Notes under the pieces: generated by a model
Database searches by the model: none
The model's input: only the letters and a program-made list of their open reading frames with translations
What the model was told of the DNA's origin: nothing
Shown: piece by piece, positions 40,604-64,000 of the stretch
Position numbering within the stretch: position 1 is the stretch's first letter
Layout: every line of letters starts with the position of its first letter
Program-made: the position numbers and the translations under genes
Origin: an uncultured archaeon
GTDB lineage: Archaea; Asgardarchaeota; Thorarchaeia; Thorarchaeales; Thorarchaeaceae
Reading direction: 5' to 3'
DNA: 64,000 bases
Assembly (NCBI GenBank): GCA_964631415.1
Contig: CAZVZC010000006.1
Span: forward strand, 3,001 to 67,000

Positions 40604-40644
40604 CTTCATGAAGGGCATGTTTCATATCGACCTTTCGAACTCGG

Positions 40645-47605: not shown

Positions 47606-50029
47606 TCATCGGTGGAACGTGAGAACCACACTCTCCCAGAGCGGCACGATTCGCAGGTGTGGCTGTTCCGCGCTGCCAAACCGGTTGACAATGCTACCAC
47701 CATACACCTTTACCATTGACAGTGCGCGAGTGGTTGGCAGGTACACCTCAAGCTCCCGGGGCAGAGCTTCGGTCCAAACCTCAATCTGATGCTGGTTGGT
47801 CGACGTGCCAAGCTCCACGCGGACTCTGCCACCCCCTACGGGCGCATTGGCTAGGGTGAGCTCGTTGCCCGAAGTGTACCAATCGTCTGGAATCGCAGGC
47901 ACAACAATGAGATCTTCGCCATCCTCAATCACAATCATGTCTCTAAGAAGGAGAAGCAAGTCTGAGGCCGCGACAACGCTGAGGCCGCTTCCACGAGTGC
48001 CCAGACCCGTCTTCAGGTCGGCCCAGTCCGGTAGTCCATGGTACTCAGAAAGTAGCTTTTGGGCCGCATGAATAGCAGTTTCAACAGCCGCGCGATTCCG
48101 ACGTGTCACCTGATAGTGTGCCACCCGGAGGGCAAGATGACTAGAAACCTCCTCAGGTCGTCCCGGAAGTCTCAGCACTCCCTTCGTGAGATACCTGCTG
48201 ACAAATGTGCTGGCCACACGGTCCAGAAAACTGGGATCAATCTCAGATGTCTGAAGAAGTGCCACTGTGCCAAGAAGAGAAACTGCATCCAGAATGACCT
48301 GTTCGCTGGGTGCTTCCTTTGCCCGGGCATCGAACTCTGCTAACTGTTCCCTAGAGCAATCCTTGATGAATGCTGCATACTTGCGAGCAGTTTCAGTCAC
48401 TGCCTGCACTCGTGAGTCTTCTCCGAGCAGGTGATATGCTGCTAGTGCAGATTGGAGGAAAGCAAGAGCCCAAGCAGCGCCTGTGAAGTCCGAAAAGGAT
48501 GCGAGCCTTGGTGGAGGAGCTTGAGGCCGAGGGACCTCCGGCACAGGGCTTTCCATCCGGGCTGCATCACTGGCAACCACATCAGTGTTTGGGAGCGGCG
48601 ACTGGGACACAGTCTGGGTCTCAATGGGCTCAGTCCGCGGCTCGGCAGTCTGGACTGCCGCGGTCATCGTAACCACAACGCTCGGCTGAAGGTATTTGTC
48701 AGCACTCTTCATAGTGTCTACGACGACTTTGTCAATCATGGGACGGGTCTGCGTCAAGAAAGCGCCATCGCGTGAGTACCGAGAAGCCTGCAACAGACTC
48801 CATGCGACAGGGACAACGTCAGACAGTTCTGCAGCACGGCCCTGAATGATCTGCTCTGCAAGGCGCAAGGACGTTTCCTTCACCAAATCGAAAGACCCAT
48901 ACCTAATAAGAGCGGACAAGACCCGAACACGCTCCGCCCATGATAGATCTGCGCAATCGTCGCCCTCAACCTGAAGAACAGCGCGAGCCTCCATCGCCAG
49001 AATTGCTTTTGACTGCGCAAGCATTGGGTCCCAGTCCCTCTCTGGGAAGCTCACGCTTAGTGTCGTTCCGGCGAACTCGAACCAAGACTCAACTGCTGCA
49101 TCACGAGCGTGAGTGCCCATGTGAAATCTCGGGCACTGGTCGGTCTTGGCAACACGACTCAATGGAGAAACAAAGAAGAAGGTATCAGTCCCCGCTGGCT
49201 TGAGGCGCACATCAAAGCGGAGCACAGATGTGGCAAGACCTCTAGATGTGGAAAACTCCTTGTCGAAGCGCTTTGAGGGTTCACTCATTGTCTTGATGAG
49301 GTTTGGATTGTCTGCAGTGGTCATGAGAATAGAGTATGGGTCGTGATCCAAGAGTACTGCAAGCAGGCCATTTGCATAGACAGCCCTACGTGGCGAATCA
49401 TACTCGATGGCCTCGATAGGCTCTACCCCTCTCACAGACATCGGTCTCAGGACACAGTAAAACGTGAACGTCACTCCGACCAGTGATAGGTTACGGATTT
49501 GGATCTCGTTGTAGACAGCCTCGCTCCTGTCTTGCTTGACATGATACACAAGCCGGGAGAACTCAACTGGTCCAAGCTGTGTCTTCCATTCGTAGATCTG
49601 ATCCTCAGTGGACAGAAGAACAAGCCGTGGACCGGTATCAGCGACCAACGCGGGGTGAACGATTCCATCAGGTCCCTGCAGCCAGAACTCGACAGACCCA
49701 CAGTCGGCATTTGCAGTGAGAAGACCACTCGAATCAGAAATCGCGCAGGCCAAGCCGCCCACGCCACCTACAATCGTCCAGTTCCTGTGATGGTTATTCG
49801 CCAAAGGCCGATCATCAGACGGACTTCCTTGGCGTGGTCCGATGGCCTGCAGTACCCAGCGTGGCAACATCCATCGTTCAGCCCGACTGTACACCCTCCC
49901 GTTCAAGCCTGACCTGAGCGTTTCAATCTCTTCGCACGGGGAAGACCCATCCGAGGAGGACGCCGGCAGTCTGTGATTTGCAGCGACTCTCCTGAAGCGT
50001 TCCAGTTTTGAGCCGTCGTTATTTGCCAA
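47606..50029 (-). CDS. Large hypothetical protein, possibly (alpha/alpha)-barrel glycosidase-like
   Basis: 807-aa ORF. The helical middle region and C-terminal 'LIVVPAIPDDW...LANAPVGGGRVRVEL' resemble the tail of GH15/GH63/debranching-type enzymes. The functional call is weak. Confidence 0.45.
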   Translation of the reverse strand: MANNDGSKLERFRRVAANHRLPASSSDGSSPCEEIETLRSGLNGRVYSRAERWMLPRWVLQAIGPRQGSPSDDRPLANNHHRNWTIVGGVGGLACAISDSSGLLTANADCGSVEFWLQGPDGIVHPALVADTGPRLVLLSTEDQIYEWKTQLGPVEFSRLVYHVKQDRSEAVYNEIQIRNLSLVGVTFTFYCVLRPMSVRGVEPIEAIEYDSPRRAVYANGLLAVLLDHDPYSILMTTADNPNLIKTMSEPSKRFDKEFSTSRGLATSVLRFDVRLKPAGTDTFFFVSPLSRVAKTDQCPRFHMGTHARDAAVESWFEFAGTTLSVSFPERDWDPMLAQSKAILAMEARAVLQVEGDDCADLSWAERVRVLSALIRYGSFDLVKETSLRLAEQIIQGRAAELSDVVPVAWSLLQASRYSRDGAFLTQTRPMIDKVVVDTMKSADKYLQPSVVVTMTAAVQTAEPRTEPIETQTVSQSPLPNTDVVASDAARMESPVPEVPRPQAPPPRLASFSDFTGAAWALAFLQSALAAYHLLGEDSRVQAVTETARKYAAFIKDCSREQLAEFDARAKEAPSEQVILDAVSLLGTVALLQTSEIDPSFLDRVASTFVSRYLTKGVLRLPGRPEEVSSHLALRVAHYQVTRRNRAAVETAIHAAQKLLSEYHGLPDWADLKTGLGTRGSGLSVVAASDLLLLLRDMIVIEDGEDLIVVPAIPDDWYTSGNELTLANAPVGGGRVRVELGTSTNQHQIEVWTEALPRELEVYLPTTRALSMVKVYGGSIVNRFGSAEQPHLRIVPLWESVVLTFHR

Positions 50030-50284: not shown

Positions 50285-51460
50285 ATGGCTGAAGCTTTCA
50301 CCAGGCCTCGCCGCCGCATTGCCAACATGATTGCTAAGGAACTGCGCCTTATAGTCAAGGACAGGTTGGCCCTTTTCTTGATCTTCATGCTCCCGGCCGC
50401 ACTGATTGGTGTCTTGTATTGGGTTGTTGGCATGAGTGATCTGGGGAGCGTCCAGTTGGGTGGAGGAAACGGTCAAGGGAGCGATGAAGGGGGTGTAGAA
50501 ACCGGAAGTGACGTTGTTCTGGGGCTGATTGACCTTGACACTACGAGGACCTACAGTGGTGAGGATCTGTCGGAGAATTTCACAGCCTTTCTTACGAAAC
50601 TCGTTAAAGAACTCATAATCTACAACAACACAAGTGATGCCTTTCAGGACCTCTATGACAAGAAGATATCTGGATATGTGGTCATCCCAGACGGCTTCGA
50701 GGCAAACCTCACGATAAATGAGCCCACATACGTCGAAGTCCATATGGATGCAACTGCTCTGATTGAACAGAGCACAGTGATGGGGACGGTCCAAGGGGCC
50801 GCCATAATGTTCAGGGCCTCAAAGCTTTGGATTAGGTCTGAGGTCTTTCCCTCCATGATAATAGAGTTCGCACCAAAGGGAGGCTACATTGCCACTGCAT
50901 TCGGTGGGTTCATTGTGGTGTTTTCTAGCTACCTTGGGATAGCGATGACTGCTGCACAGTCCATAGTGGGCGATGTGCCTCTGCGCAGGATGCTTCTCAC
51001 ACCGACAAACAGGCTTGAAGTCATTATCGCCAAGGTAGCTGCGTATGTCATCATTGGCTTCTTTCAGTCCCTTCTTCTGGTTTCACTTTGGGTAGTAGTC
51101 TTCAGTCTGAATCTCAACACGAGCTTTGGAGTCCTACTGATCATTATGAGCTTGACATCTCTCACTGGGTCAACAACCGGCATTTTGATCTCCTCAGTCG
51201 CCTCGTCTAGGCTTCAAGCCAACCAGATGTTCCTGTTCGTCATGTTCGGGACAATCATCTTGGCAGGGTTCTTCGTCGATGTCGGGGTTCTGGATGAGTA
51301 CATGCCAATGAACCAAGGACTCAAGCTGTTGATTGACACCGCGTTCAAAGGGCTTTCACTGATTGATGTCCTGATTCCAATACTGAAGTTGCTTGCATTC
51401 TCCGTGGGTGCTATCCTGATTGCTACGTTCATCTTTTCAAAGAAGCCAACACTGGGGTAG
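50285..51460 (+). CDS. ABC-2 type transporter permease
   Basis: N-terminal TM, then a ~150-aa extracytoplasmic loop, then five C-terminal TM segments ('IATAFGGFIVVFSSYLGIAM', 'VAAYVIIGFFQSLLLVSLWVVVF', ...). This is the typical ABC2_membrane topology. Confidence 0.8.
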   Translation: MAEAFTRPRRRIANMIAKELRLIVKDRLALFLIFMLPAALIGVLYWVVGMSDLGSVQLGGGNGQGSDEGGVETGSDVVLGLIDLDTTRTYSGEDLSENFTAFLTKLVKELIIYNNTSDAFQDLYDKKISGYVVIPDGFEANLTINEPTYVEVHMDATALIEQSTVMGTVQGAAIMFRASKLWIRSEVFPSMIIEFAPKGGYIATAFGGFIVVFSSYLGIAMTAAQSIVGDVPLRRMLLTPTNRLEVIIAKVAAYVIIGFFQSLLLVSLWVVVFSLNLNTSFGVLLIIMSLTSLTGSTTGILISSVASSRLQANQMFLFVMFGTIILAGFFVDVGVLDEYMPMNQGLKLLIDTAFKGLSLIDVLIPILKLLAFSVGAILIATFIFSKKPTLG

Positions 51461-53152
51461 GTGAGAACGGCCTTGGTCGAGACATCTGGTTCTGAACCTG
51501 TTTTGCCCCGAGAGGTGCCTTCCTTTGTTGAGGAGGCGTACTTCTCTGGAGCTAGGATTGGTGACGCGATAGACTGGTGTATCCGGAGACAGGACCGAGA
51601 GATCCACTGCGAGGTCCAAGGAGTACTCACTTCTTCAAAGGCCGAAGTCAGATTCAAGGCACGAGTTCTGAGGTTCAAGAAAGGTGTCATAACACGTAGG
51701 ATTATAGTACTCGTCGAAGAGGACATGCGCAGAAAGAAGACAGGCGACCTCGATCCTGTTCTTACGGTTGGCAGCGAAGGTGCCGCACAAGAGGATGTTG
51801 CAGCTAGCCAGATCACTCTCCAGAACTACCTGAAGAGAAACATGTTCGATGACCTCTACTACGATGGCAGAGAACTGCAACAGGCGGCAAAGGACCTCGC
51901 CAAGATGAAGAGCAAGGAAATACTCTGCACGATTTGGGGTCATCGCGCTTCAGACAAGCTGCCAATGACCATCAAGGGTAATCTAGTGAGCTCCACAACT
52001 AGAGCAGCGCCCATACTACCTGAGGGCTTTCTTGAAGTCCGAGTGGAACCTGAGGACACGGTGGGCTCTCCAAAGATCTACTTGGTGGCCCAACCTCAGC
52101 TTCTCATTGGGCCTTTCTCGAATCCTGTTCTTACTGTCATCGCCGAGAAGGTCTACATCCGGCCGTTCGCTTGGAAGGAAGCACCGGTCTACAGGGACGT
52201 GCTTGTGGCACGGAATCTCACTGTCACTACGAAGGCCGGGAAAAAGCTGATTGAGAATGTCACTTTCGCGATTAGAGAGGGAGAGATGCTCGCTATCATC
52301 GGAGAATCTGGTGCAGGAAAGTCTACCTGTATCAAAGCTCTGATTGGAGACATACCTAGCACGGGCGTCGCGAGGATTGCTGGTATAGACTCAAGGAACG
52401 CACAGAAGGTCCGCTATTTCTTTGGTTACTGCCCACAGGACCTGAGCTACATGTACGAAACCTTCACTCCGCTCGAGAACATTGTCGCCTTTGGCAAGCA
52501 ATATGATATTCCCGAGTGGCAGCTCATAGAGGAAGGAAAGACTCTGCTCAGGGACTTCGGCATCATAGAGAAAGGTGGCAGCCCCACTGGAAAGCTCAGC
52601 GGCGGGCAGCAGCGCAGAGCATCAGTCGCCATAGCACTTGTCCATAGACCGAAAGTACTCCTGATGGATGAGCCTACAAGCGGACTGGACCCTGACAACA
52701 GGAATGAACTGTGGCACTTCTTGGACATGGTCAACAAGGAGTACGGCACATCTATTGTAGTCGTCACGCACTACCCAGCCGAGGCAGAGTTCTGCGACAA
52801 GGTCGCGGTCTTCCTCCGTGGCAAGAGCCTCGTGGCATTCGGCAGCCCTGCCAAGCTGAAGGAGTCACTGCCTTCGAGGGGCTTTGCTGTTGGGGTTGTA
52901 CTCGAGGAAGTGGATCCTCGAGCAAGAAAGATGCTAGAGGAAGTGCAGGGTGTGTCATTCGTGCTGCAGAGGGGAGAACTGCTGAAGGTCTTCACGGAAG
53001 AGCCACTCGAAACGATTGCAGAGAAGTGCATGACCGCACTCAAGGAGAAGAGCATTGGTGTGAAGATAGTGAAGACGAAGGCTCTAGCTGACATGGTCGA
53101 CTATTACATCGCCATAACAAGAAAGCTTGTCACAGGTACTATCGAGAAGTGA
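51461..53152 (+). CDS. ABC transporter ATP-binding protein with ~245-aa N-terminal domain of unknown function
   Basis: Walker A 'GESGAGKST' (aa ~281), signature 'LSGGQQRRA', Walker B 'LLMDEPTSGLD', 'VTHY'. There is no Met within ~75 aa upstream of the ABC domain start (nearest is M169 in 'LPMTIKGNL', ABC domain from aa ~247), so the extension appears fused. The GTG start directly abuts the permease stop. Confidence 0.8.
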   Translation: MRTALVETSGSEPVLPREVPSFVEEAYFSGARIGDAIDWCIRRQDREIHCEVQGVLTSSKAEVRFKARVLRFKKGVITRRIIVLVEEDMRRKKTGDLDPVLTVGSEGAAQEDVAASQITLQNYLKRNMFDDLYYDGRELQQAAKDLAKMKSKEILCTIWGHRASDKLPMTIKGNLVSSTTRAAPILPEGFLEVRVEPEDTVGSPKIYLVAQPQLLIGPFSNPVLTVIAEKVYIRPFAWKEAPVYRDVLVARNLTVTTKAGKKLIENVTFAIREGEMLAIIGESGAGKSTCIKALIGDIPSTGVARIAGIDSRNAQKVRYFFGYCPQDLSYMYETFTPLENIVAFGKQYDIPEWQLIEEGKTLLRDFGIIEKGGSPTGKLSGGQQRRASVAIALVHRPKVLLMDEPTSGLDPDNRNELWHFLDMVNKEYGTSIVVVTHYPAEAEFCDKVAVFLRGKSLVAFGSPAKLKESLPSRGFAVGVVLEEVDPRARKMLEEVQGVSFVLQRGELLKVFTEEPLETIAEKCMTALKEKSIGVKIVKTKALADMVDYYIAITRKLVTGTIEK

Positions 53153-53156
53153 TCTA

Positions 53157-56100
53157 ATGCTGGCATCTAGGCGAAACAGCAGAAGAGCCATCGCTCATCT
53201 GGTGACGCTCCTTGTGACTGTTTCGGTAGTGGTGGGCGCCCTAGTGGCCTCCATGCCCATGATTCCCCTCGATGCCATGTCAGCAGGGACTGCGGCGCAT
53301 ATCGATGAAGCCCTGTTAGAGTACACCGCGTCAGATGAGAGATTGGACTTGCTTGTTGGCTATCGCCCTGAAGCCGGTGAGATCAAGGCCCGCTATGCTA
53401 TACAGATGGCAGACAAGTCTGCCGAGATCATTGAGTCCTTCGAGGAAGTGGGCATAGTCCGAGTGAAACTGGTCGGCAAGGCCATCATGGACTTGGCAGA
53501 GAACGGCTATGTCACAGGAATATGGTCTAATCAGCTGAAGAAGCTGAGTACTCCTCTCGATCAGCATGCGTCAGATGTCCTGACAACGAACTATCAGTCG
53601 CCTATCGACACAGTTGGTGCCAGAGACCTCTGGGACAAAGGATACAATGGCACAGGGGTTGTTATTGCTGTCCTGGATACAGGTATCGACTTTCTTCACG
53701 CAGACCTGAACGACTTCGATGATGACAACACTACTAGCGACTCCAAGGTGACAGCGTATGCCTCGTTTGTTGAAGGTGACACTCTCCCCGTGGACATCAT
53801 CGGGCATGGCACGTACGCTGCTTCGATTGCGGCCGGTACAGGTAACAGGTCTGGTGGGCTCTACGCAGGTATCGCACCTGGAGCGACATTGCTCTCTGCA
53901 AAGGTGACCTTGGGAGGACTTCTCGCGGCGCCCAGCTGGATTGTCTCTGGCATCGAGTGGGCGTGCAGCAGAGGAGCAGACATCATACTCATGCCGTTCA
54001 ACACATTCGGTTCACCCGGCGATGCTGTATCTGTCGCTGTGAAGACTGCCTCTGAGAGAGGAGTCTTCGTCGTGGCCGCTGCGGGAGATGACGGACCAGA
54101 CTACCTGACAATAATGTCGCCTGGTGGAAGCGCTGCCGCCTTCGCGGTTGGAGCTTATGACATAAACAAGGGCGAAGTGGCCGCATTCTCGGGAAGGGGG
54201 CCCTCTCTTGACATGTTGGCAAAGCCAGACATTGTCGCCCCTGGCACTGGAATCATCGGAGCAAGAGCAGGAAATGCACTCTCGCTGGCTGGATTCGGGT
54301 CATTCAGCCTTGGGGACTTAGGTGGACTGTCTTCACTGCTCGGTGGCTCGTTTGGAGAGAACGTCGATGACTATTATATGAAGGCAGACTCGACCGCCGC
54401 CGCGGCCGCAGTCACGGCTGGATGCGTCGCGCTGCTCATGGAAGCCTTCGACCGCGCTACGCCCATTGTTCTAGCGAACGTTCTCAGAGACACAGCGACC
54501 CGGCTCGATGAAGGAGCAAATGACGCAGGGGCGGGCCTTCTAAACCTAGAAGCGGCTTTTCATTTCTTGGAACAGAAGCAGGATCCCATTCAACCACACA
54601 ACAGAACTACCGGCACCCCGCTGCTTGCATTGGGTCTCTTCTCTACACAAGGGAGAGATGCTTCAACCACTGTCTTGATGAGCAGTTATGGGACAGCTAT
54701 TGTTGCTCTGGATCAGCGACAGAATCAGGAAAGCAGCGTTCACCTTCTAATGGGTATGCTGGCACTCCGATGGGAAAACAGAAGCCCGACAGACTTCATG
54801 GAATTCCAAGTAAAGAGAGAACTCCATCAAGTGGCCATGAGCTCTGGGTTGAACTCCTATAACCGCTGGGTCGGGGTTCTATCATACGATTCACTATATG
54901 TCATCCTGCTGGTGGAGTCATACAACCTGACAAGCTCATCTCCTCTTCCAATCACCGCTTTCAGACTCACACCGTTCATCCTGAACCTTGGTTCAGAACC
55001 GGTTTCCAACGTGAGCTTGTTTCTCTCGTATTCACTGGACCTGTTTCTTGACGGGAGAGATGATCATGGCAAGTACTCGCTCACGAATCGACAGCTGTTT
55101 GCGTACAGCATATCTGAAGGCTACCAGTCTTTCTACGTAGGTATCAACTCAAGCCGCCCTCTGGACGCATTTGAGGTGGGAAACTCATCGCAGATTTCAG
55201 ACCACGTCTCGAACGATAATCTGACAGGTTCCACGAACTTCGACGGGACCGTAGGCCTCGCGATGAAATGGAACTTTGGAACGCTGCCCATCAACAGTCC
55301 GAAGAATGTTACAATAGCTTTGGGTTTTGGGGAGAACCGCACAATGCTTGACCAGTCAATCACAGCGATGTGGAGTCTCGGACCCTCATCCCAAGTCGCA
55401 AGCCAGAGCGACCTCATGGTTGTCGAGGCAGACATTCCGAGGACAGCAATTGCTGAACATGCATACGAGTCAAGAGCCGTCATAATGAATGTAGGAGTCA
55501 ATTCCTCTCAAGCTGTCGGTGCAATGATTATTGGACAAGCAGAACCAGGCGGAGCGATGATATTCAGTAGGTTCTATTCGTTCGATGAGGTTGCGCCCTT
55601 TCACGCCGAAATACTGACCACTGACTGGAGCCCAACAACAGACGGCATATACTCTGCAGCGTGGGTTGTCGCAGCGGGAGTTGAGTTTGCCATAGCCCTG
55701 TTTGCGAACCCGACTCAACAACTGGCGACAGCAGGCGTAGCGCTTCTTGACGACTTCCTCTTAAGGGATCTATTCGTTGTTGAGCCAATCCAGTCCACAT
55801 CGGTGTTTCCAAAATGGCTGCCATTCGCCCCATTCGACATACAATTCCCAGCAGACTTCGGACTCTATACGTTCTCTCTGCAAACGAATGTCCCTCTCGG
55901 TAACGTCACAGTGGAGAAGCATGGCGATGCCAGCGACTGGGGCAATGTGACCCTTCCTTCATGTGCTTCAGTGTTTGGATACTACAACTTCTCACTGTTC
56001 CTGCTAGCGCCACCCATTACTGTGGATGGTTATCACAGATGCGATTACCGGATCATCACTGAGTCTGGCTGGACGACCAATGTGACCCTTGAATGTGACC

Positions 56101-57503
56101 TCCGGTACCCCAGAGCCATGATGCTGCTTGACACTTCACATGGGGGAGGACTCAGTATAGGAGGTGGACTTGGCACCGGCAGCCAGACGGCAGACTCTGG
56201 TTCAGCGGGAATAACTGAAGGGCTTTCTATCAGCCTTGGGAGTCTTGACAGCCTCTCATCAATCACAGACATATTGGAGCAGTTCAGGATGACCACTTTC
56301 TCTGGTCTGTCCGAGATGAAGAAGTCGATGGCCTCCAGAGGCCTAGACCTCATTGAAACCCCAGGTATATCGTTGAGTCAGGAGATCCTGTCGCAGTTCT
56401 CAACCGTATTCATCATCGGACCGTCCAAAGAGTTCAACACAACTGAGATTGACATTCTGAGAGAGTTCACAGCAGAGGGAGGCCGACTCGTGGTACTGGG
56501 CGACTACGATGGTCGCGCCAACCTCACTGTGTTGAATGGCCTGCTTTCGCCCTATGGGTATGCAATGGCTGGCAAGCACACAGAAGACAACACGACCGAG
56601 ATAGTCCACAACTCGGCTCTTGGAGCAGGCTTGGAGTCCGTCTGGCTGGGAGGAGGCACGTTCATTGTCAACAACCAGTCACTGTCGGCAGTCATGCTGA
56701 CTGGCAGACCTGTGGTCCTTGTCGACAAGTCGCCCCCGGACCTCGTGCTCTTTGGGTCCTCACGTCTCTTCATGAACAAGAACCTGCCAAAGTGCAACAA
56801 CACTCTTCTGTTGCACAACCTCAACGAGTACCTGCTCTCTAACACGCTCACGTGCGTGACCAGCCTGGCAGAGAAGACGACGAGATACCCAGTCGGCAGG
56901 AGTGTCTACATCAACCTGAACGTGACAGACTACGCGGGGCAGCCTGCAAATGATCTGACTGTGTTCATTGCCTTCGAACTGCCAAATGGGAGCTTCGTAT
57001 ACTGGATTGCAGGCTTCGTAGAAAGGGGTCTCTACTCAACAAACTTTCCATACAGTTACTACAACTCGTCAGGCAGAGTAAACGGTGTATTCATTGTAAT
57101 GAGGACAGAAGAGTACGCAGGCACCTTTGCAGGTGTCAGCTTCGAGCTTTACCTAGAAACAACAACAACGCCCACTAGTGAAACAGAGGCTTTGCTGACA
57201 TTGCCTCAGATCGCATTGATCACTTCCGGGAGCGTGTTCGCCTTGTCAATCAGTATGCTGGCACTGAACAGATACCGACGGAGAAAGAAGATGCGCATTC
57301 CAGAGGTGGGTCCCGAGCTGGCCCGCGAGATAGACAACTCGCTCAACAACCTCCTTGCAGCGTTCATCCAGATGGGGGATCTCATCCATAGAGAAGACCT
57401 AGATCGTGTGCAGAAGATAGAGGTTCTGAGGGGTCTGATGAAGGGGCTGGAGGAGGCCAGAAAGAGGTTCGACAGGGTGAGTGAAACCATTGGAGGCACG
57501 TGA
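53157..57503 (+). CDS. Membrane-anchored subtilisin-like (S8) protease fused to large extracellular region including a GldG/DUF4350-like domain; C-terminal TM and cytoplasmic tail
   Basis: N-terminal anchor 'AHLVTLLVTVSVVVGALVA'. Asp 'VIAVLDTGID', His 'HGTYAASIAAG', Ser region 'KADSTAAAAAVTAG'. 'TVFIIGPSKEFNTTEIDILREFTAEGGRLVVLGD' is also present. TM 'IALITSGSVFALSISMLAL' is followed by 'RYRRRKK' and a ~70-aa tail. The track start is 53127; ATG 53157 is preferred. Confidence 0.8.
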   Translation: MLASRRNSRRAIAHLVTLLVTVSVVVGALVASMPMIPLDAMSAGTAAHIDEALLEYTASDERLDLLVGYRPEAGEIKARYAIQMADKSAEIIESFEEVGIVRVKLVGKAIMDLAENGYVTGIWSNQLKKLSTPLDQHASDVLTTNYQSPIDTVGARDLWDKGYNGTGVVIAVLDTGIDFLHADLNDFDDDNTTSDSKVTAYASFVEGDTLPVDIIGHGTYAASIAAGTGNRSGGLYAGIAPGATLLSAKVTLGGLLAAPSWIVSGIEWACSRGADIILMPFNTFGSPGDAVSVAVKTASERGVFVVAAAGDDGPDYLTIMSPGGSAAAFAVGAYDINKGEVAAFSGRGPSLDMLAKPDIVAPGTGIIGARAGNALSLAGFGSFSLGDLGGLSSLLGGSFGENVDDYYMKADSTAAAAAVTAGCVALLMEAFDRATPIVLANVLRDTATRLDEGANDAGAGLLNLEAAFHFLEQKQDPIQPHNRTTGTPLLALGLFSTQGRDASTTVLMSSYGTAIVALDQRQNQESSVHLLMGMLALRWENRSPTDFMEFQVKRELHQVAMSSGLNSYNRWVGVLSYDSLYVILLVESYNLTSSSPLPITAFRLTPFILNLGSEPVSNVSLFLSYSLDLFLDGRDDHGKYSLTNRQLFAYSISEGYQSFYVGINSSRPLDAFEVGNSSQISDHVSNDNLTGSTNFDGTVGLAMKWNFGTLPINSPKNVTIALGFGENRTMLDQSITAMWSLGPSSQVASQSDLMVVEADIPRTAIAEHAYESRAVIMNVGVNSSQAVGAMIIGQAEPGGAMIFSRFYSFDEVAPFHAEILTTDWSPTTDGIYSAAWVVAAGVEFAIALFANPTQQLATAGVALLDDFLLRDLFVVEPIQSTSVFPKWLPFAPFDIQFPADFGLYTFSLQTNVPLGNVTVEKHGDASDWGNVTLPSCASVFGYYNFSLFLLAPPITVDGYHRCDYRIITESGWTTNVTLECDLRYPRAMMLLDTSHGGGLSIGGGLGTGSQTADSGSAGITEGLSISLGSLDSLSSITDILEQFRMTTFSGLSEMKKSMASRGLDLIETPGISLSQEILSQFSTVFIIGPSKEFNTTEIDILREFTAEGGRLVVLGDYDGRANLTVLNGLLSPYGYAMAGKHTEDNTTEIVHNSALGAGLESVWLGGGTFIVNNQSLSAVMLTGRPVVLVDKSPPDLVLFGSSRLFMNKNLPKCNNTLLLHNLNEYLLSNTLTCVTSLAEKTTRYPVGRSVYINLNVTDYAGQPANDLTVFIAFELPNGSFVYWIAGFVERGLYSTNFPYSYYNSSGRVNGVFIVMRTEEYAGTFAGVSFELYLETTTTPTSETEALLTLPQIALITSGSVFALSISMLALNRYRRRKKMRIPEVGPELAREIDNSLNNLLAAFIQMGDLIHREDLDRVQKIEVLRGLMKGLEEARKRFDRVSETIGGT
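53604..54560 (+). other. Domain: peptidase S8 catalytic core
   Basis: Catalytic Asp codon at 53676-53678, His codon at 53805-53807, Ser codon at 54390-54392. The oxyanion-position codon at 54087-54089 encodes Asp. Confidence 0.75.
56341..56790 (+). other. Domain: GldG / DUF4350-like (ABC-2 transporter auxiliary, GATase1-like fold) - tentative
   Basis: 'STVFIIGPSKEFNTTEIDILREFTAEGGRLVVLGDYDG...LNGLLSPYG' resembles the 'dvlvi.gp...ls..e...l..fv..GG.Ll.l.d' core of ABC_transp_aux/DUF4350. Confidence 0.45.
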
Positions 57504-57504
57504 T

Positions 57505-58485
57505 ATGAGCACCACCCCTCGGCACGAAATCGAGATCGTCGACCTTAAGGTGGCGTTCAAGAAGCTCCTTGCACTCAAGGGAGTATCGTTCTACGCCGAC
57601 AAGAGAGAGTTCTTGGGTGTTGTGGGCGCGTCAGGAGCCGGCAAGACTACCGTGCTGAGAGTACTCACCGGGCAGATATCACCGACAGGGGGCAAGGCCT
57701 TCGTGGGCGGCTACGACGTCACCAAGAAGAGAAAACTCATCAGCCTCCTTGTTGGCTATGTGCCCCAGCTGGAGCACCTCAGCCTCTACTACGACTTCTC
57801 TGCAATTCAAAATGCGCAGTTCTTTGGCCGATGTTTTGGCATGAGACCAAAAGAGATTGAAGAGAGAGCAAGAAGCATACTGACAATCCTAGGCTTTGAT
57901 GAAGACCTGATGACCAAGAAGGTGGAGAAGCTCTCAGGAGGAGAGAGAAAGAGAGTATCGATATGCCTAGGGATGGTGCACAACCCTCCAGTGTTGCTTC
58001 TTGACGAACCAACGACAGGTCTGGATGCTCATTTACGGCATGAGACGCTGAACTACCTGAAGATGCTGAACTACGAACTCGGCACGACGATGGTGATAAT
58101 AAGCCACGACCTTGAAGTGGTGGACTACTGTACACGCGTCTGCCTGCTTGAGGACGGACAGGTTAGCCAGTTCGGCACGCCGGCCGATCTGATCTCGACG
58201 CTCCCAGGAAAAGGGGAGAGCATCCGTCTGGTCTTACCCAGAATGTCGTCTGCAGTCCTAGACAGGATTGTAGCACTGAAGAGCGTGAAATACTGGGCCA
58301 AGGCTGGCCGCAATGCAGTGAAGCTCTTTGTGGACGAGCCGCGCGAGCAGATGCTAGCCATCATAAAGAGCCTCAATGAAATGAAGATACCCTTCGAAGA
58401 GATTTCCCTTGTGGAGGCGGACTTCTTCGACTATTTCCAGGTCAAACCATGGAAGAAAAGGACCGAAGGTGTGACCCAATCATGA
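57505..58485 (+). CDS. ABC transporter ATP-binding protein (second ATPase of the module)
   Basis: Walker A 'GASGAGKTT', signature 'LSGGERKRV', Walker B 'LLLDEPTTGLD', 'ISHD', plus a ~100-aa C-terminal extension. ATG 57505 lies 1 nt after the protease stop (track start 57481). Confidence 0.85.
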   Translation: MSTTPRHEIEIVDLKVAFKKLLALKGVSFYADKREFLGVVGASGAGKTTVLRVLTGQISPTGGKAFVGGYDVTKKRKLISLLVGYVPQLEHLSLYYDFSAIQNAQFFGRCFGMRPKEIEERARSILTILGFDEDLMTKKVEKLSGGERKRVSICLGMVHNPPVLLLDEPTTGLDAHLRHETLNYLKMLNYELGTTMVIISHDLEVVDYCTRVCLLEDGQVSQFGTPADLISTLPGKGESIRLVLPRMSSAVLDRIVALKSVKYWAKAGRNAVKLFVDEPREQMLAIIKSLNEMKIPFEEISLVEADFFDYFQVKPWKKRTEGVTQS

Positions 58486-61400
58486 AGACCCTGTATGTAG
58501 CCCTGGTGACAATACTGGCACTCGCTTTGATAAGCATGCAGCAACCTGCTTCTGACCAGTTCGCCTTGCAGATTGATGTAAGACCGGTCCATACTCCATC
58601 GGCACCTGCGGTTCTCACGCCCTTCATGACGGCTTCGGTCTGGTCAAACACAACCGGTTCACAGGTAGTCGACCTTGTGCTGGCAGATGTAGACGGAGAT
58701 GGCCTGGATGAAGCAGCCGCTGTCACTCAAAACGGAACGCTCTTCTTGTTTGCAGAGAATGGCACGAAGCTCTGGCAAATGAACCTCGGTGCCTCACCTT
58801 ATGCTATGGAGCAGGCTGCGGCGGACGCTGACGCAAAGATGGAACTGCTGATAGGCACTGCGAAAGGTCTGCTTGTTGTGTGCGGCAACCAGAGTATCGC
58901 AACGAACGTCACACTTTCGAATGCTGTTAGAGCAGTGGCGCCTGTGGACTTGAACGGGGACTCAATAGATGAACTGTCGGCGGGTTGCGATGACTACAGG
59001 GTCTACGCTTACGCTCTGAACGCGACTCAGCTGTGGAACTACACAAGCAATGGACGTGTTCGCAGGATTCTGGCCGACGACTTCGACCTAGACGGACTAG
59101 GAGAGATCCTGTCTGCCTCTGATGGCAGGAGGGTCACATTACTGGAGAGCAATGGGACAGCAGTCTTCGAGGAGTTGAGCCCCAGCACCATTGGTGTCAT
59201 GGGCTCTGGTGACTTGACCGGCAGCTCTGACCTAGAGGCCATTGTTGGAACGGGCGCAGGAACAATCCAAGTCTACTGGCGAAACGGTACCCTCGCATTC
59301 TCGGTGGCCGTGAACAGCAGCGTATCCTCTCTGACTACAGGGCAAGTAGTTGTTGGAGGCTACGATGAATTTGCAGTCGGAACTTCGGGCAACGAGCTCA
59401 GAGTCTACAGCTCCTCCGGATCACTAATGTGGAACAGGACGTTGGGAGGGCAGGTTTCTGTGGTCAAGCTCCTAGATGTCGCGGGGCTGCCCGAAAATCA
59501 AGTTCTGGCGGGCTCTGACGGAGGAGCCCTGTTTCTCTACAATGCATCCGGATATCGGGTCAATCAGACTGTGGTCGGGGGTCTCGTCGGTGTTCTTGAT
59601 GTGGGTGACTTGGACGGAAATGGCAAGGCAGAGTATGCTGCAGGGACAAACACGGGACTCATGACAGTCTACGGACTTGATTATGACAGGGATGGTCTTG
59701 CCGATGCGAGAGAGACCCTTATCGTAGGCACTCTCTGGGACAATCCCGACACCGACGGTGACCGCCTGACCGACGGACAGGAGGTCCTCCAGTACGGAAC
59801 AAACCCGCTCAAGCCCGACTCTGATTCTGACGGGCTCTCAGACTTTGCAGAGGTCATCACGTATGGCACAGATCCCAACAGCGTTGACTCGGATGCTGAC
59901 AGGCTGACGGACTGGCAAGAGGTCTACCTGGGGACCAACCCCAACCGAGCTGACACAGATGGAGACCAGCTCACAGACTACGAGGAGAACAATGTCACGC
60001 TGACTGACCCAGAAGTTGCCGACACGAACGGTAACGGCATAAACGATGCCCAAGATGATAATGACGGAGAAGGTCTCACAAATATCCAGGAAGTCAGATT
60101 GACTTACACAGACCCGAACGATGTCGATTCTGACAATGATGGGGTTTCCGACTACTATGATGATCAGGACGCAGACAACCTCGCAAACTGGAAAGAGATC
60201 TCGGTCGGCACTGACCCACTAAACCCGGACAGTGACTCGGATGGTCTGCGGGACGGTGATGAGGTCAAATTCTGGAAGACGGACCCTCTCAGTGAGGACA
60301 CTGATTCGGACCAGCTGACTGACTACGACGAAGTGATGACGGTCCACTCCAATCCGAAGGTGGCAGACACCGATGGAGACGGGCTTGATGATTACGCCGA
60401 GTATGTCACCTATGGCACTAATTCCTCTGACCCTGACACTGACGACGATGGTCTCAACGACTATGATGAGATACGCGTATACTCGACGAATGCAACCAAT
60501 CCCGACAGCGACGCTGACGGACTGCTTGATGGCGCCGAGGTCAATACATGGAAGACAGACCCCAACAGTAACGACACTGACCTCGATGGCCTCACAGACT
60601 ATGCAGAGGTGGTGACTTGGCATACCAATGCTACGTTGACAGATACAGATGCAGACGGGCTAGATGACGGACAGGAGATTATTACCTACCACACCAATGC
60701 GACCTCTGTCGACACCGACCTTGACGGAGTATGGGACAAGGACGAGGTGGATCGCTATCCTATCTTCAATGCCACGAATGCGCACACGTTCAACAGCACT
60801 GTCAATGACTACGAATGGGACTACGATAGTGATGGACTTTCGAACGGCTTTGAGATATATATGACCCGGACCAATCCGTTGCTCGCAGACACTGACGGGG
60901 ACGGAACCCTTGATGATCTCGAGGACTCGGATCTTGATGGACTTGACAACTACGAGGAACTCGTCGCAGCAACACATCCCAGAAGACCGGACAGTGACGG
61001 GGATGGCGTGAAGGATGGTGACGAGGTCAAGGTCCTAGACACGGACCCTAATGACAAGGATACCGATGACGACTCCACAAATGACTATGACGAGGACTTC
61101 GACGGAGACCGACTATCAAACGGTGTCGAACTATACATAACGCATACGGACCCGAAGAACGCCCACACTCACGGAGCAGGACAGGCTCGTGACGACTACT
61201 ATGATAGTGACAGCGACGGGCTGTCCAATTGGTTCGAAGTGGTGATGAGCCGCACCGATCCAGTCTACAATGATACGGATGACGACGGCACTCTCGACAC
61301 ACAGGAAGACCCTGACAATGACAGACTTGACAACATTCACGAGTTTCTTGCGGGGACTGACCCCTTGGCAGCTGACACGGACAGCGATGGACTGACCGAC

Positions 61401-64000
61401 TATGAAGAGGTCCATGAAGCGTACACGAGCCCCTTGAAGAGCGACTCGGATGATGATGGAGTCCTTGACGGCAATGACGATCAGGACAATGATGGCCTGA
61501 CCAATCTGCAGGAAATCCGAACCTATGGCACCAATGCGACGAACTGGGACACTGATGGTGATATGCTGAGGGACGGGTTGGAGATCAGCCTCGGCCTGAA
61601 TGCAACTGAGGCAGATACTGACAAGGATGGTCTCTACGATGGATATGAGGACCTGAACCACAACGGCAGATGCGACATGGGTGAGTCGGGAGAAGATCCT
61701 GACGCTGACGGTGTTGTCGACGCTGGTGAAACTGACCCCGCGAACGCTGACACCGATGGAGACGGTCTGAATGATGGAGATGAGTGGACTCATGGAACCA
61801 ACCCATTGAGGGAGGACTCGGACAGCGACGGTCTCTTAGATGGGCAGGAGGTCCACAGTTTTGGCACCAGTCCTCTGAGCAATGACACGGACCTTGACAT
61901 GCTGAGCGACTACATTGAGGTCAACGTCACACTGACCGACCCCTTGAGCAACATGACGCATTCGGGAGTGCTAGACTACGACTGGGACTCAGACTCAGAC
62001 GGTCTGACAAATGGAGAAGAGGTCTATGTCTACAGGACTTCACCTGGAGACATGGACTCAGACAATGACGGTCTGTTCGATGGATTCGAGATAAATGGTT
62101 TCACCGTGTCGTTCTACAATAGTAGCGGCACATTGGAAACTATGATGGTCATTTCTGACCCTCTTCAATTGGACTCAGACGGAGACAATCTGACCGACTA
62201 CGATGAGTGGGTGTATGGAACAGACCCCAGAAGAAAAGACACGGACCGCGATGGTATCGACGATCACATAGAGATATCCTACCTGTCTACGAACGCCACC
62301 CGTTGGTCAACGTTCATGAATGGAACATCCGACTTCCATCTTGATAACGATGGCGACGGCCTTTCAAATGGCCTGGAAATATATGGATACAACTCGAATG
62401 CTACCAGTTCAGATAGTGATGTTGATGGCCTGCCGGACGGTATAGAGGTCTATATTGCAGGTTCCAGCCCAACAGACAAGGACACAGACAATGATGGGCT
62501 CTCGGACTATCTCGAGTACATGGTCTGTAAGACGAACCCACGGGAAAACGACAGCGACTTCGATGGGCTCACAGACTACTACGAGGTCTACACATCACTG
62601 ACAGACCCTAACAACTGGGATAGCGACGTCGACGGACTCTCGGATGCAGATGAGGTGAATCAATACGGGACTGACCCCAACAAGGCGGACTCTGATTCGG
62701 ACGGGATAGGCGACAAGAGGGAACTCGACCTTGGCACAGACCCGAACTCAAACGACACTGATTCTGACGGACTTAGCGATTGGCAGGAATGGAAGGTGTA
62801 TCGCACTGACCCCACTGTGGCAGACTCTGATAGTGACGGTCTGAAGGACGGGGATGAGATCAGTAATGGAACGGATCCCATGAACCCCGACACTGATTTC
62901 GACTCTCTGACAGACGGTGACGAGGTCAACAAGTATAGCACGGACCCCATGAACCCCGACACTGACTCTGACGGACTGGCAGACAACGACGAGATACTCA
63001 ACAGCCATACAGACCCAACAAACCCAGATAGCAACGGCAACGGAATCCGCGACGACCTTGATGATGAGGACGCCGACGGGCTCAACAACTTCCTTGAGAT
63101 ATACATGTACCAGACGAACTGCACACTGCTGGACACCGACGGAGATCGCCTAGCCGACGGCTACGAAGTCTTCACGAGTCACACTGATCCACGAAAGGCG
63201 GACTCTGACGAAGACGGACTCGATGACTGGGATGAGATGTTTCGATATTCCACCGACCCTAAAGCGGTTGACTCTGATGGAGATGGTTTGACCGATGGGG
63301 AGGAGGTCCTGACCTACCACACACTCCCGAACAAGAGTGACACAGACAATGACACTGTCAACGACTATGACGAGCTCAAGGTGTTCGCTACCGATCCTCT
63401 GAACCCGGACTCCGACTTCGACGGACTGACAGACGGACAAGAGCTCTACGTATACAATACCGACCCCCTGAGAGAGGATACCGACTCGGATGGGCTTCTC
63501 GACTCTCGAGAGATACTTCTACGCACTAACCCCCTGAGCAATGACACTGACAGCGACAGGCTCAGCGACTTTGAGGAGGCAAACGTCACTCTCACTGATC
63601 CACTGGTGTATAGCACCAAGGGTGACGGAACTTCTGATGCAGACTGGGACATGGACAACGACACCCTCACCAACTGGCAGGAGATTCGCCTCACAAAGAC
63701 AGACCCGCGTAATGCGGACAGCGATAGTGACACCATCTTAGATGGCGCTGACGACGAGGACAGGGACTTGCTGACCAACTATGAGGAGTGCTGGCTTACT
63801 AGGACAGACCCAAGAAACAAAGACAGCGATGGTGACGGGGTTTCGGACCTCAATGACGACGAAGACGGCGAGGGGCTAACGAACGGAGAAGAGTGCCACA
63901 CCTATTTCACGAATCCGTTGGTCGAAGATACGGACGGTGACAGACTATCAGACTACGAAGAGGCAAAGGAATACGGCACGAATCCATTGATGAAGGATTC
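58482..64000 (+). CDS. Giant secreted/surface protein (5' partial in window, >1839 codons): signal peptide + FG-GAP/VCBS propeller + long array of thrombospondin-type-3-like Ca-binding repeats
   Basis: This ORF is not on the ORF track because it has no stop before the window end. The ATG at 58482 overlaps the upstream TGA (ATGA). I translated the frame by hand from 58482 through ~60660 and at spot checks to 63840 and found no stop. N-terminus 'MKTLYVALVTILALALISMQQPASD'. Repeats include 'TDPxxxDSDSDGLxDGxE'. Confidence 0.85.
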   Translation, partial: MKTLYVALVTILALALISMQQPASDQFALQIDVRPVHTPSAPAVLTPFMTASVWSNTTGSQVVDLVLADVDGDGLDEAAAVTQNGTLFLFAENGTKLWQMNLGASPYAMEQAAADADAKMELLIGTAKGLLVVCGNQSIATNVTLSNAVRAVAPVDLNGDSIDELSAGCDDYRVYAYALNATQLWNYTSNGRVRRILADDFDLDGLGEILSASDGRRVTLLESNGTAVFEELSPSTIGVMGSGDLTGSSDLEAIVGTGAGTIQVYWRNGTLAFSVAVNSSVSSLTTGQVVVGGYDEFAVGTSGNELRVYSSSGSLMWNRTLGGQVSVVKLLDVAGLPENQVLAGSDGGALFLYNASGYRVNQTVVGGLVGVLDVGDLDGNGKAEYAAGTNTGLMTVYGLDYDRDGLADARETLIVGTLWDNPDTDGDRLTDGQEVLQYGTNPLKPDSDSDGLSDFAEVITYGTDPNSVDSDADRLTDWQEVYLGTNPNRADTDGDQLTDYEENNVTLTDPEVADTNGNGINDAQDDNDGEGLTNIQEVRLTYTDPNDVDSDNDGVSDYYDDQDADNLANWKEISVGTDPLNPDSDSDGLRDGDEVKFWKTDPLSEDTDSDQLTDYDEVMTVHSNPKVADTDGDGLDDYAEYVTYGTNSSDPDTDDDGLNDYDEIRVYSTNATNPDSDADGLLDGAEVNTWKTDPNSNDTDLDGLTDYAEVVTWHTNATLTDTDADGLDDGQEIITYHTNATSVDTDLDGVWDKDEVDRYPIFNATNAHTFNSTVNDYEWDYDSDGLSNGFEIYMTRTNPLLADTDGDGTLDDLEDSDLDGLDNYEELVAATHPRRPDSDGDGVKDGDEVKVLDTDPNDKDTDDDSTNDYDEDFDGDRLSNGVELYITHTDPKNAHTHGAGQARDDYYDSDSDGLSNWFEVVMSRTDPVYNDTDDDGTLDTQEDPDNDRLDNIHEFLAGTDPLAADTDSDGLTDYEEVHEAYTSPLKSDSDDDGVLDGNDDQDNDGLTNLQEIRTYGTNATNWDTDGDMLRDGLEISLGLNATEADTDKDGLYDGYEDLNHNGRCDMGESGEDPDADGVVDAGETDPANADTDGDGLNDGDEWTHGTNPLREDSDSDGLLDGQEVHSFGTSPLSNDTDLDMLSDYIEVNVTLTDPLSNMTHSGVLDYDWDSDSDGLTNGEEVYVYRTSPGDMDSDNDGLFDGFEINGFTVSFYNSSGTLETMMVISDPLQLDSDGDNLTDYDEWVYGTDPRRKDTDRDGIDDHIEISYLSTNATRWSTFMNGTSDFHLDNDGDGLSNGLEIYGYNSNATSSDSDVDGLPDGIEVYIAGSSPTDKDTDNDGLSDYLEYMVCKTNPRENDSDFDGLTDYYEVYTSLTDPNNWDSDVDGLSDADEVNQYGTDPNKADSDSDGIGDKRELDLGTDPNSNDTDSDGLSDWQEWKVYRTDPTVADSDSDGLKDGDEISNGTDPMNPDTDFDSLTDGDEVNKYSTDPMNPDTDSDGLADNDEILNSHTDPTNPDSNGNGIRDDLDDEDADGLNNFLEIYMYQTNCTLLDTDGDRLADGYEVFTSHTDPRKADSDEDGLDDWDEMFRYSTDPKAVDSDGDGLTDGEEVLTYHTLPNKSDTDNDTVNDYDELKVFATDPLNPDSDFDGLTDGQELYVYNTDPLREDTDSDGLLDSREILLRTNPLSNDTDSDRLSDFEEANVTLTDPLVYSTKGDGTSDADWDMDNDTLTNWQEIRLTKTDPRNADSDSDTILDGADDEDRDLLTNYEECWLTRTDPRNKDSDGDGVSDLNDDEDGEGLTNGEECHTYFTNPLVEDTDGDRLSDYEEAKEYGTNPLMKD
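58615..59673 (+). other. Domain: FG-GAP/VCBS-type propeller blades of the giant protein
   Basis: 'LADVDGDGLDEAAAVTQNGTLFLF', 'PVDLNGDSIDELSAGCDDYRVYAY', 'ADDFDLDGLGEILSASDGRRVTLL', 'SGDLTGSSDLEAIVGTGAGTIQVY', 'GGYDEFAVGTSGNELRVY', 'ENQVLAGSDGGALFLY', 'VGDLDGNGKAEYAAGTNTGLMTVY'. Confidence 0.7.
59674..64000 (+). repeat. In-frame tandem array of degenerate ~66-78-nt units encoding D-x-D-x-D-G (TSP3-like) calcium-binding repeats
   Basis: Dozens of units of the form '(Y/W)xTDPxxxD(S/T)DxDGLxDxxE'. Example of a recent local duplication: the 20-mer 'cccatgaaccccgacactga' occurs at 62877-62896 and again at 62946-62965, a 69-nt offset. Confidence 0.85.

Follow-up and report, generated by a model that had tools for sequence, protein, structure and literature searches.

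We analysed a 64,000-nucleotide stretch of DNA from an uncultured thorarchaeon (contig CAZVZC010000006.1 of assembly GCA_964631415.1, positions 3,001 to 67,000), referred to below as the window, which ends inside a giant gene. The frame that begins at ATG 58482 on the forward strand remains without a stop for 1839 codons (58482..63998, +) and then runs off the window edge, as the first-pass annotation of this DNA had claimed. From its N-terminus, the encoded protein carries a signal-peptide-like segment, a predicted beta-propeller, and an array of acidic, predicted calcium-binding motifs. In all related loci long enough to show gene order but one, it closes an operon that also encodes a giant subtilase and an ABC-2 transporter.

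The giant frame and its predicted domains

The giant gene and the upstream ABC ATPase gene overlap in the sequence ATGA, which joins the start codon at 58482 to the TGA of the ATPase gene; orthologues use the same start. Based on the base composition of the window, the chance of a random frame staying open for 1839 codons is ~6e-36. The supplied list of open reading frames (ORFs) holds only short antisense or off-frame ORFs within 58482-64000, which agrees with the earlier description; the giant frame is missing from that list because frames running off the source end are left out. Antisense ORFs of 84-220 amino acids (aa) lie inside the giant gene at 60219-63778 on the reverse strand (e.g., 61131-61793). 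These are not genes, and they are most likely present because the complement of GAC/GAT-rich codons is poor in stops.

How far does the protein extend beyond the window? The non-catalytic part of the neighbouring subtilase, used as a query, retrieved a 93%-identical S8 protease and, through it, a locus (L032) that encodes a complete 2263-aa orthologue. The window protein aligned with residues 1-1839 of this orthologue at 89.4% identity with 0 gaps, and ~424 residues are therefore expected past the window edge, for an inferred full length of ~2263 aa. Contigs of the L032 type were recovered from three different samples; they share the gene order of the window, and their DNA was 90% identical to it over 20.8 kb. 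Exact look-ups of the upstream ATPase protein, with either possible start, and of a 59-mer from the window end in genome and metagenome contigs gave no match. The first-pass annotation had placed the 3' end outside the window, and the L032-type loci supply it, with both the stop and the anchor. It had also raised the possibilities that a stop or frameshift interrupts the frame and that the repeats are an artefact of assembly. The frame contained neither lesion, being gapless against L032 and collinear with 12 complete orthologues. At the DNA level, the copies of the array are spaced at 69 nt and are 60-76% identical to each other, and Tandem Repeats Finder reported no array. Because the DNA repeats have diverged to this extent and the array is positionally conserved across species, assembly collapse is unlikely.

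Residues 1-20 (MKTLYVALVTILALALISMQ; 58482..58541, +) are the sole strongly hydrophobic stretch of the 1839 aa. They are kept in orthologues, and aa 2-19 were modelled as a helix by AlphaFold2, consistent with the proposed signal-peptide-like N-terminus. The N-terminus has no cysteine behind this hydrophobic segment, and there is thus no lipobox.

The signal-like segment is followed by a predicted eight-bladed beta-propeller of the FG-GAP_3/VCBS type at aa 50-399 (58629..59678, +). In a Pfam search with aa 1-430, FG-GAP_3 (PF13517) matched seven stretches with an E value of 1.7e-13 and 51.4 bits (cutoff 26.9). FG-GAP (PF01839) was below threshold (E = 0.017), and weaker matches were obtained to the BBS7, BBS2, PTHB1, ITFG2, and lambda-carrageenase propellers. 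The AlphaFold2 model, which was built from a small alignment, had a predicted local distance difference test score (pLDDT) of 84.6 and contained 32 strands arranged as eight four-stranded blades of ~44 aa each. The seven Pfam stretches and the eight modelled blades fit the earlier estimate of about 7-8 blades. Foldseek placed the designed eight-blade protein Cake8 at the top of the matches in the Protein Data Bank (PDB), with a template modelling (TM) score of 0.90 normalised to the target; the other best matches were the BBS1/2/7/9 (BBSome) and ITFG2 propellers, YxaL, and BamB. Integrin alpha was not among the top 50 matches of the model. Several blades carry motifs that resemble DxDxDGxxE calcium loops (DVDGDGLDE, DLNGDSIDE, DFDLDGLGE, and DLDGNGKAE).

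The remainder of the window protein, aa 400-1839 (59679..63998, +), is an array of acidic, predicted Ca2+-binding motifs of the TSP3_bac type. A motif scan identified 65 motifs of the form DxDxDGxxDxxE, the first of them at aa 400 (nt 59679), so that the claim of dozens of thrombospondin-type-3-like units from about nt 59674 was borne out. The spacing has a mode of 23 aa, and most units are 22-23 aa long, with units of 12 aa and a few inserts of 34-39 aa interspersed. TSP3_bac (PF18884) matched with 235.9 bits against a cutoff of 25 (E = 1.8e-71); when the two halves of the array were scored separately, they gave 122.5 and 184.8 bits, with 15 and 22 stretches above threshold. The first-pass annotation had suggested that the units be counted with the eukaryotic TSP_3 model. 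TSP_3 (PF02412) did not match any of three array segments, even at E<=10. Searching PDB sequences with the array returned nothing at E<=0.01; at E>0.02, the matches were limited to EF-loops of calmodulin and a fragment of Bap, and none came from thrombospondin or COMP. TSP3 motifs were not found elsewhere in the window in any frame. The composition of the 1839-aa protein (18.7% Asp, isoelectric point of 4.05) agrees with the prediction of a very large acidic product. The protein contains seven cysteines, which are not periodic.

We also observed that blocks of the form 'NVTLTDP...' and 'D.NGNGI.D..DD.DGEGLTN.QE' recur at aa 491-560, 1493-1550, and 1688-1810. This higher-order repetition suggests ancient segmental duplications of multi-repeat blocks.

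Quantification of N-x-S/T sequons revealed 41 in the window protein compared with 20.2 +/- 4.0 expected, and none of 2000 composition-preserving shuffles reached 41. The sequons had been described as very frequent, and the excess is about twofold. In the propeller there were 13 compared to 3.2 expected, and 17 of the 41 are kept in at least 11 of the 12 orthologues; N84, N354, N504, N930, N1018, N1040, N1280, N1424, and N1546 are conserved positions. The density was 2.2 sequons per 100 aa in the giant protein and 1.7 in the exported subtilase, versus 0.2-0.5 in the predicted cytoplasmic proteins of the window. N-glycosylation of the giant protein is a reasonable reading of these frequencies.

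Conservation, membrane anchor, and operon

Only seven relatives of aa 1-430 were found in a 5.8-billion-protein index. The close ones carry annotations as hypothetical proteins from Thorarchaeota or Hermodarchaeota. Among GTDB species representatives, we identified 27 loci with 41-61% identity, all of them in metagenome-assembled genomes (MAGs) of Thorarchaeota, Hermodarchaeota, or 'Promethearchaeota', and the named protein matches were nearly all from Thorarchaeota, Hermodarchaeota, or Promethearchaeota, with one labelled Lokiarchaeota. These matches assign the window to an Asgard archaeon of the class Thorarchaeia. The gene was complete in 12 of the 27 loci, where it encodes proteins of 2138-2276 aa that are 55-61% identical to, and collinear with, the window protein. 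Judging from these loci, the giant gene is single-copy and conserved across Thorarchaeia. The databases mostly hold N- or C-terminal pieces labelled 'hypothetical protein, partial' because MAG contigs end inside the giant gene, as was the case for L001, L003, L007, L008, L016-L020, L026-L028, and L030 (many of them short-read MAGs). A protein search with the C-terminal domain returned such partial fragments only.

Lesions were observed in three of the orthologues. In L009 (CP070658.1, a complete Thorarchaeota chromosome), an in-frame TAA (13355-13357) stands at codon 1119, where two close orthologues have Leu; the L009 orthologue is otherwise intact through the usual C-terminus. L004 carries a one-base indel at ~12111, and L023 carries a frameshift at ~13400-13480. 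These lesions may be sequencing errors or recent inactivation.

The number of motifs was nearly constant among orthologues (74-76 in total), though the proteins are only 55-70% identical overall. By this comparison, the full-length giant protein is expected to carry ~76 motifs, 65 of them inside the window. The identity of the orthologues to the window protein was 63% in the repeat region versus 45% in the propeller, and indels occupy ~20 columns of the orthologue alignment over 1839 residues. Because the repeat region outconserves the propeller and has almost no indels, the length of the array is under constraint. The array is not rapidly expanding; its length is fixed, and every repeat corresponds to an orthologous repeat in the related proteins.

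In orthologues, the array ends with 'DF.P.VHW', which is followed by a hydrophobic helix of ~21 aa, an RR or KR pair, and a conserved region of ~115-125 aa; the tails read '...RRFRERY...' or '...RRYRHVH...'. The L032 protein terminates in '...VNLKPVKITA', other orthologues in IVA. Each full-length orthologue has exactly two hydrophobic segments, with RR/KR after the second. This arrangement differs from the layout of archaeosortase (PGF-CTERM) and other sorting signals, in which a sorting tripeptide, a transmembrane helix, and a short basic tail stand at the very C-terminus, given that the helix precedes the conserved region and does not form the C-terminus. The anchor of the orthologues is thus a single transmembrane helix with a conserved, predicted cytoplasmic domain, not a sortase-type signal, and we infer a type I topology for the giant protein, with the C-terminal helix as its anchor in the membrane.

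The C-terminal tail is the best-conserved part of the protein (~78% identity among orthologues versus 55% for the propeller). Its domain of ~100 aa was modelled as a seven-strand beta-sandwich with a pLDDT of ~85. In an exhaustive hidden Markov model (HMM) search of 1.84 billion representative proteins, the domain was confined to the giant-protein family, and the matches beyond the family were remote ones to DUF11/CARDB-type repeats. Foldseek matches of the tail were weak and generic (POLDIP2/ApaG, gamma-COP appendage, arrestin, and transglutaminase barrels; E values of 8e-6 to ~1e-3). We considered an adaptin-ear/arrestin-like tail, as in a trafficking adaptor, and rejected it in view of the generic nature of the beta-sandwich matches and the DUF11/CARDB-type profile.

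A more distant homologue, P0005 (JGI metagenome, 494 aa, 26% identity), shows the layout on a small scale: its FG-GAP/VCBS propeller is combined with two TSP3-like motifs, a single transmembrane helix, and a tail that is short and basic. This suggests that the propeller-TSP3-transmembrane architecture is the older one and that the long array was elaborated from it.

The giant gene is the last of five same-strand genes that are tightly packed or overlapping. The first encodes an ABC-2 family permease (50285..51460, +; Pfam ABC2_membrane_3, 5.9e-22) and the second an ABC ATPase (51461..53152, +; ABC_tran at aa 265-407, 1.6e-24) with an N-terminal extension of ~250 aa, for which only a faint match resembling a TrmB effector domain was obtained. 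The third gene encodes a membrane-anchored S8 subtilase of 1458 aa (53127..57503, +; Peptidase_S8, 6.7e-43). The fourth encodes a second ABC transporter ATPase of 326 aa (57505..58485, +; ABC_tran, 2.7e-26), which is translationally coupled to the giant gene through the ATGA overlap and holds the same place in every related locus that reaches that far upstream. There are thus two ATPase genes per one ABC-2 permease. The order of the operon was constant in all related loci long enough to show it, except L009, in which the permease and the first ATPase were not at the expected upstream place.

The subtilase has an N-terminal membrane anchor, a C-terminal transmembrane helix, a helical, predicted cytoplasmic tail, and 25 sequons. 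PDB subtilases match it at aa 155-479, and aa ~1040-1231 gave weak matches to IFT52_GIFT, DUF4350, ABC_transp_aux (GldG-like), and the GATase-like domain of MBTPS1; these matches converge, and the weak GIFT/DUF4350/GldG-like domain is placed at aa ~1082-1231. The subtilase has more than 150 homologues of ~1450 aa, and the named ones are nearly all from Thorarchaeota. In its overall layout, the protein recalls the eukaryotic site-1 protease, by analogy only. We also considered a GldA/GldF/GldG-like gliding transporter and rejected it: the GIFT/ABC_transp_aux matches of the S8 protein are sub-threshold, the permease misses GldF, and the ATPases fit DrrA better than GldA. It stays a low-probability lead.

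Divergent from the operon lies a gene for an 807-aa protein (47606..50029, -) that has no Pfam or NCBIfam match and whose position is conserved. A homologue with 32-53% identity occupies the same position in 18 related loci, and an 807-aa gene is there in L031-L033. On the other side, outside the window, a 418-aa all-TPR protein that appears to be cytoplasmic is encoded 3' of the giant gene on the same strand in at least 10 loci (L032 22202-23458, +; also L004, L005, L006, L009, L014, L015, L022-L024, and L029), sometimes separated from the giant gene by an insertion of 1-4 kb. This TPR protein is a candidate partner for the conserved cytoplasmic tail. The operon and its conserved flanks contain no VWA-containing gene, although a partner could be encoded elsewhere.

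Elsewhere in the window, the genes are those of ordinary metabolism, among them genes for Leloir-pathway enzymes, and the window holds no tRNAs. A sugar-metabolism cluster at 38376-43608 (+) contains genes for galactose-1-phosphate uridylyltransferase, galactokinase, and a GH38 alpha-mannosidase of 987 aa; the mannosidase could be relevant to glycan turnover.

Prokaryotic relatives and proposed function

Which known proteins does the giant protein resemble? Because the HMM thresholds of both families were exceeded, we place it in the TSP3_bac and FG-GAP_3 repeat families. With TSP3_bac surface proteins it shares the acidic, predicted Ca-binding DxDxDGxxDxxE unit of 22-23 aa and the extracellular or envelope location, which is predicted here. 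Bacterial OmpA-TSP3 proteins are a further example of TSP3_bac (PF18884) surface proteins. The title of the bacterial OmpA TSP3 structure by Dai et al. 2017 reportedly names an intra-repeat disulfide, which is a difference from the giant protein, whose repeats are without one. Compared to other TSP3_bac proteins, the giant array is unusually long, fixed at ~76 motifs, and positionally conserved across an archaeal class, and the protein adds the eight-blade propeller, the transmembrane helix, and the family-specific cytoplasmic domain. Proteins with thrombospondin-type-3-like repeats are known in archaea, e.g., in ammonia-oxidising archaea (PMC6593220), and TSP3-type repeats have been described in giant membrane-anchored bacterial proteins, the 'dockerin-type' giant proteins of Omnitrophota (bioRxiv 10.1101/2023.11.21.568195).

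The top-scoring named family was CglD (NCBIfam NF033765, an equivalog), with 411 bits against a cutoff of 400, a score summed over 10 partial repeat matches. The best stretch covers profile positions 169-312 of 1124, which belong to the COMP-like Ca-binding repeat region only. CglD sits on the surface of Myxococcus xanthus cells, whose Ca2+-dependent adhesion and traction reportedly require it (bioRxiv 10.1101/2023.10.19.562135). Pfam searches detected neither VWA/MIDAS (metal-ion-dependent adhesion site) nor EGF-like domains in the giant protein, which has only the seven cysteines mentioned above and no lipoprotein signal. CglD, in turn, is without a propeller, a transmembrane helix, and a cytoplasmic domain, whereas the giant-protein family has all three. 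Since the giant protein has neither the VWA domain nor the EGF-like stalk nor the lipoprotein signal, its score does not make it a CglD family member, it is not an equivalog, and we use CglD (with MtsC and MtsD) as a functional precedent only, by analogy.

Another precedent is tetrabrachion of Staphylothermus marinus, a giant membrane-anchored stalk glycoprotein that carries the subtilisin-family protease STABLE (PMC5744192). Both systems would pair a giant membrane-anchored archaeal surface glycoprotein with a very large subtilisin-family protease, which in our case is encoded in the same operon. However, the tetrabrachion stalk is a right-handed coiled coil with beta-rich arms, and it has no sequence or domain similarity to the giant protein.

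We propose, with a probability of roughly 0.6, that the giant protein is a Ca2+-loaded adhesin or surface-organisation protein of the type I membrane class that acts with the subtilase and the ABC-2 transporter; the description 'Ca-dependent adhesin or matrix protein' from the first-pass annotation is still our best guess at its function. In this proposal, the protein would be exported and held by its C-terminal helix, with the propeller and the ~76 acidic motifs N-glycosylated outside the cell. The acidic array would be loaded with Ca2+ and could act, at a fixed size, as a Ca2+-stabilised stalk or compact 'wire' on which the propeller is displayed as a binding head. The C-terminal beta-sandwich would lie in the cytoplasm and contact an intracellular partner, which the very strong conservation of the tail implies. 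The protein may then work with the co-transcribed membrane-anchored subtilase and the ABC-2 transporter in Ca2+-dependent adhesion or in the organisation of the cell surface.

Several points weigh against this proposal. Ca2+ binding, glycosylation, surface exposure, and adhesion are all steps that we infer, and the signal peptide and the topology come from hydropathy and the positive-inside rule. The C-terminal 424 aa lie outside the window and were taken from orthologues, and the CglD score derives from summed repeat matches only. In addition, adhesins often vary, and strong conservation together with a fixed number of repeats is unusual for them; these two features fit a structural role in the envelope at least as well.

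A structural role of this kind is the main alternative, which we regard as possible but tentative. Here, the giant protein would be the chief membrane-anchored, stalk-like component of a Thorarchaeial coat that replaces an S-layer or forms a canopy, and the subtilase would either be bound to this protein or process it. The single-copy gene, present in all 27 related genomes found, and the strongly conserved stalk of fixed motif number and length are consistent with this idea, as are the transmembrane anchor and the high sequon density, which are found in archaeal S-layer glycoproteins, and the giant membrane-anchored S8 protease in the same operon. Tetrabrachion provides a precedent for a membrane-anchored stalk glycoprotein with bound subtilisin-family proteases (PMC5744192), and cultured Asgard cells are without an ordered S-layer and bear complex surface proteins (PMC9834061). 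However, coiled-coil or lattice-forming domains are absent, and a conserved cytoplasmic domain is atypical of S-layer proteins. A structural envelope role overlaps the adhesin proposal rather than excluding it, and one protein could have both roles.

It is doubtful that the system serves substrate capture, with the propeller binding peptides or polysaccharides, the subtilase digesting them, and the ABC system moving the products or an accessory molecule. When an ABC-2 system has cytoplasmic ATPases but no solute-binding protein, as in this operon, it is typically an exporter. Pfam revealed neither a catalytic domain nor a carbohydrate-binding module in the giant protein, and substrate capture would leave the need for a Ca-binding array of ~1700 aa and a cytoplasmic domain unexplained. 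On the other hand, a large surface subtilase is co-encoded, the propeller has a weak Pfam likeness to the lambda-carrageenase propeller, and Thorarchaea have been inferred to be peptide-based heterotrophs (PMC12993045); for tetrabrachion, the bound protease has been proposed to supply peptides for fermentation (PMC5744192).

A more speculative version of the adhesin proposal, and in our view an improbable one, is that the giant protein is an integrin-like Ca2+-dependent receptor forming the outward part of an unrecognised Asgard apparatus for adhesion and signalling or for surface motility. If so, the cytoplasmic beta-sandwich would pass binding or force across the membrane to cytoplasmic partners such as the TPR protein, the N-terminal domain of the ABC ATPase, or the Asgard cytoskeleton, and the subtilase with its GldG/GIFT domain would form a membrane machine together with the ABC-2 transporter. 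The archaeal relatives of eukaryotes would then possess an analogue of focal-adhesion systems, either convergent or ancestral.

Relation to eukaryotic adhesion proteins

Could the giant protein be a vertically inherited homologue of integrin alpha and/or thrombospondin, and thus an Asgard 'eukaryotic signature protein'? The first-pass annotation had pointed in this direction by calling its FG-GAP propeller and TSP3 repeats hallmarks of eukaryotic integrin alpha and of thrombospondin/COMP. That part of the annotation did not hold, since TSP3_bac fits where TSP_3 fails, the propeller has eight blades, and leg domains are lacking. We consider such homology very improbable, even though the host is an Asgard archaeon and the protein joins FG-GAP-type blades and TSP3-like motifs in a head-stalk-transmembrane-tail topology. 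The Pfam and Foldseek likeness of the propeller to eukaryotic FG-GAP-type propellers (BBS1/2/7/9 and ITFG2) also speaks for it.

With integrin alpha, the giant protein shares FG-GAP-type blades with DxDxDG Ca loops, a type I layout (a propeller as the N-terminal head, then a long ectodomain, a single transmembrane helix, and a tail in the cytoplasm), and an N-glycosylated ectodomain, which is predicted only for the giant protein. The differences are more specific. Integrin alpha has seven blades of ~60 aa, whereas the giant protein has eight of ~44 aa, and, as noted above, integrin alpha lies outside the top 50 structural matches. Pfam detected no Integrin_alpha2, thigh, or calf leg domains in the giant protein, and the GFFKR motif is absent from the orthologue tails. 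The tail of integrin alpha is short, while the cytoplasmic part of the giant-protein family is a folded domain of ~100 aa. Finally, integrin alpha pairs with a beta subunit (betaI/VWA MIDAS), but no beta-subunit gene was found near the giant gene.

The likeness to thrombospondin/COMP lies in the Asp-rich DxDxDGxxDxxD/E Ca-binding motifs. In the giant protein, long units of ~23 aa alternate with short ones of ~12 aa, and the TSP-1 structure of Kvansakul et al. 2004 is said to show similar C-type and N-type motifs in thrombospondin. However, thrombospondin has 13 motifs compared to ~76 in the giant protein, and the repeats of thrombospondin/COMP contain disulfide cysteines, whereas those of the giant protein do not. 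Neither EGF nor TSP_C lectin-like domains were detected with Pfam, and the C-terminus of the full-length orthologues is a transmembrane helix followed by the beta-sandwich.

Two further observations argue against homology: modules of the FG-GAP/VCBS and TSP3 kinds occur widely among bacteria and in other archaea (PMC6593220; bioRxiv 10.1101/2023.11.21.568195), and the family was found in Thorarchaeia only. As for previous reports, passages in two citing papers credit Liu et al. 2021 with integrin-repeat proteins in two Asgard phyla (PMC9258230, PMC9197732); the word 'integrin' does not occur in the preprint of that study. Our literature search found no publication that joins 'Asgard' with 'FG-GAP'. 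Nothing in our analysis shows a specific evolutionary link between the giant protein and eukaryotic adhesion receptors.

We give practically no credence to the remaining reading, that the frame is not a gene and instead arose by chance in DNA rich in acidic codons, by chimeric assembly, or by collapse or expansion of a repeat. Many MAG contigs do break within the gene, and three related loci carry a single stop or frameshift. Against this reading stand the ~6e-36 chance of so long an open frame, the 89% identity without gaps to the protein in independent assemblies of three samples, the equal order of motifs in twelve complete orthologues, and DNA repeats that are only 60-76% identical and go unreported by Tandem Repeats Finder; as far as sequence comparison shows, it is already refuted.

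Together, these comparisons show that the giant protein is real and conserved throughout the class Thorarchaeia; it is a predicted surface protein built from known prokaryotic modules. Its distinguishing features are the fixed array of ~76 motifs, the family-specific cytoplasmic domain, and an operon of invariant order that also encodes a giant subtilase and an ABC-2 transporter. The finding also calls for caution. The eukaryote-like FG-GAP/TSP3 modules of this Asgard genome belong to the prokaryotic versions of these repeats, and phylogenetic support is needed before such modules are counted as homologues of integrin or thrombospondin. Our literature search found no cultured representative of Thorarchaeia. 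Cultured Asgard archaea have no ordered S-layer and are covered by 'complex surface proteins' that have been proposed to serve cell-cell contacts relevant to eukaryogenesis (PMC9834061), and the giant gene is a concrete and good candidate for one such Asgard surface component in Thorarchaeia.

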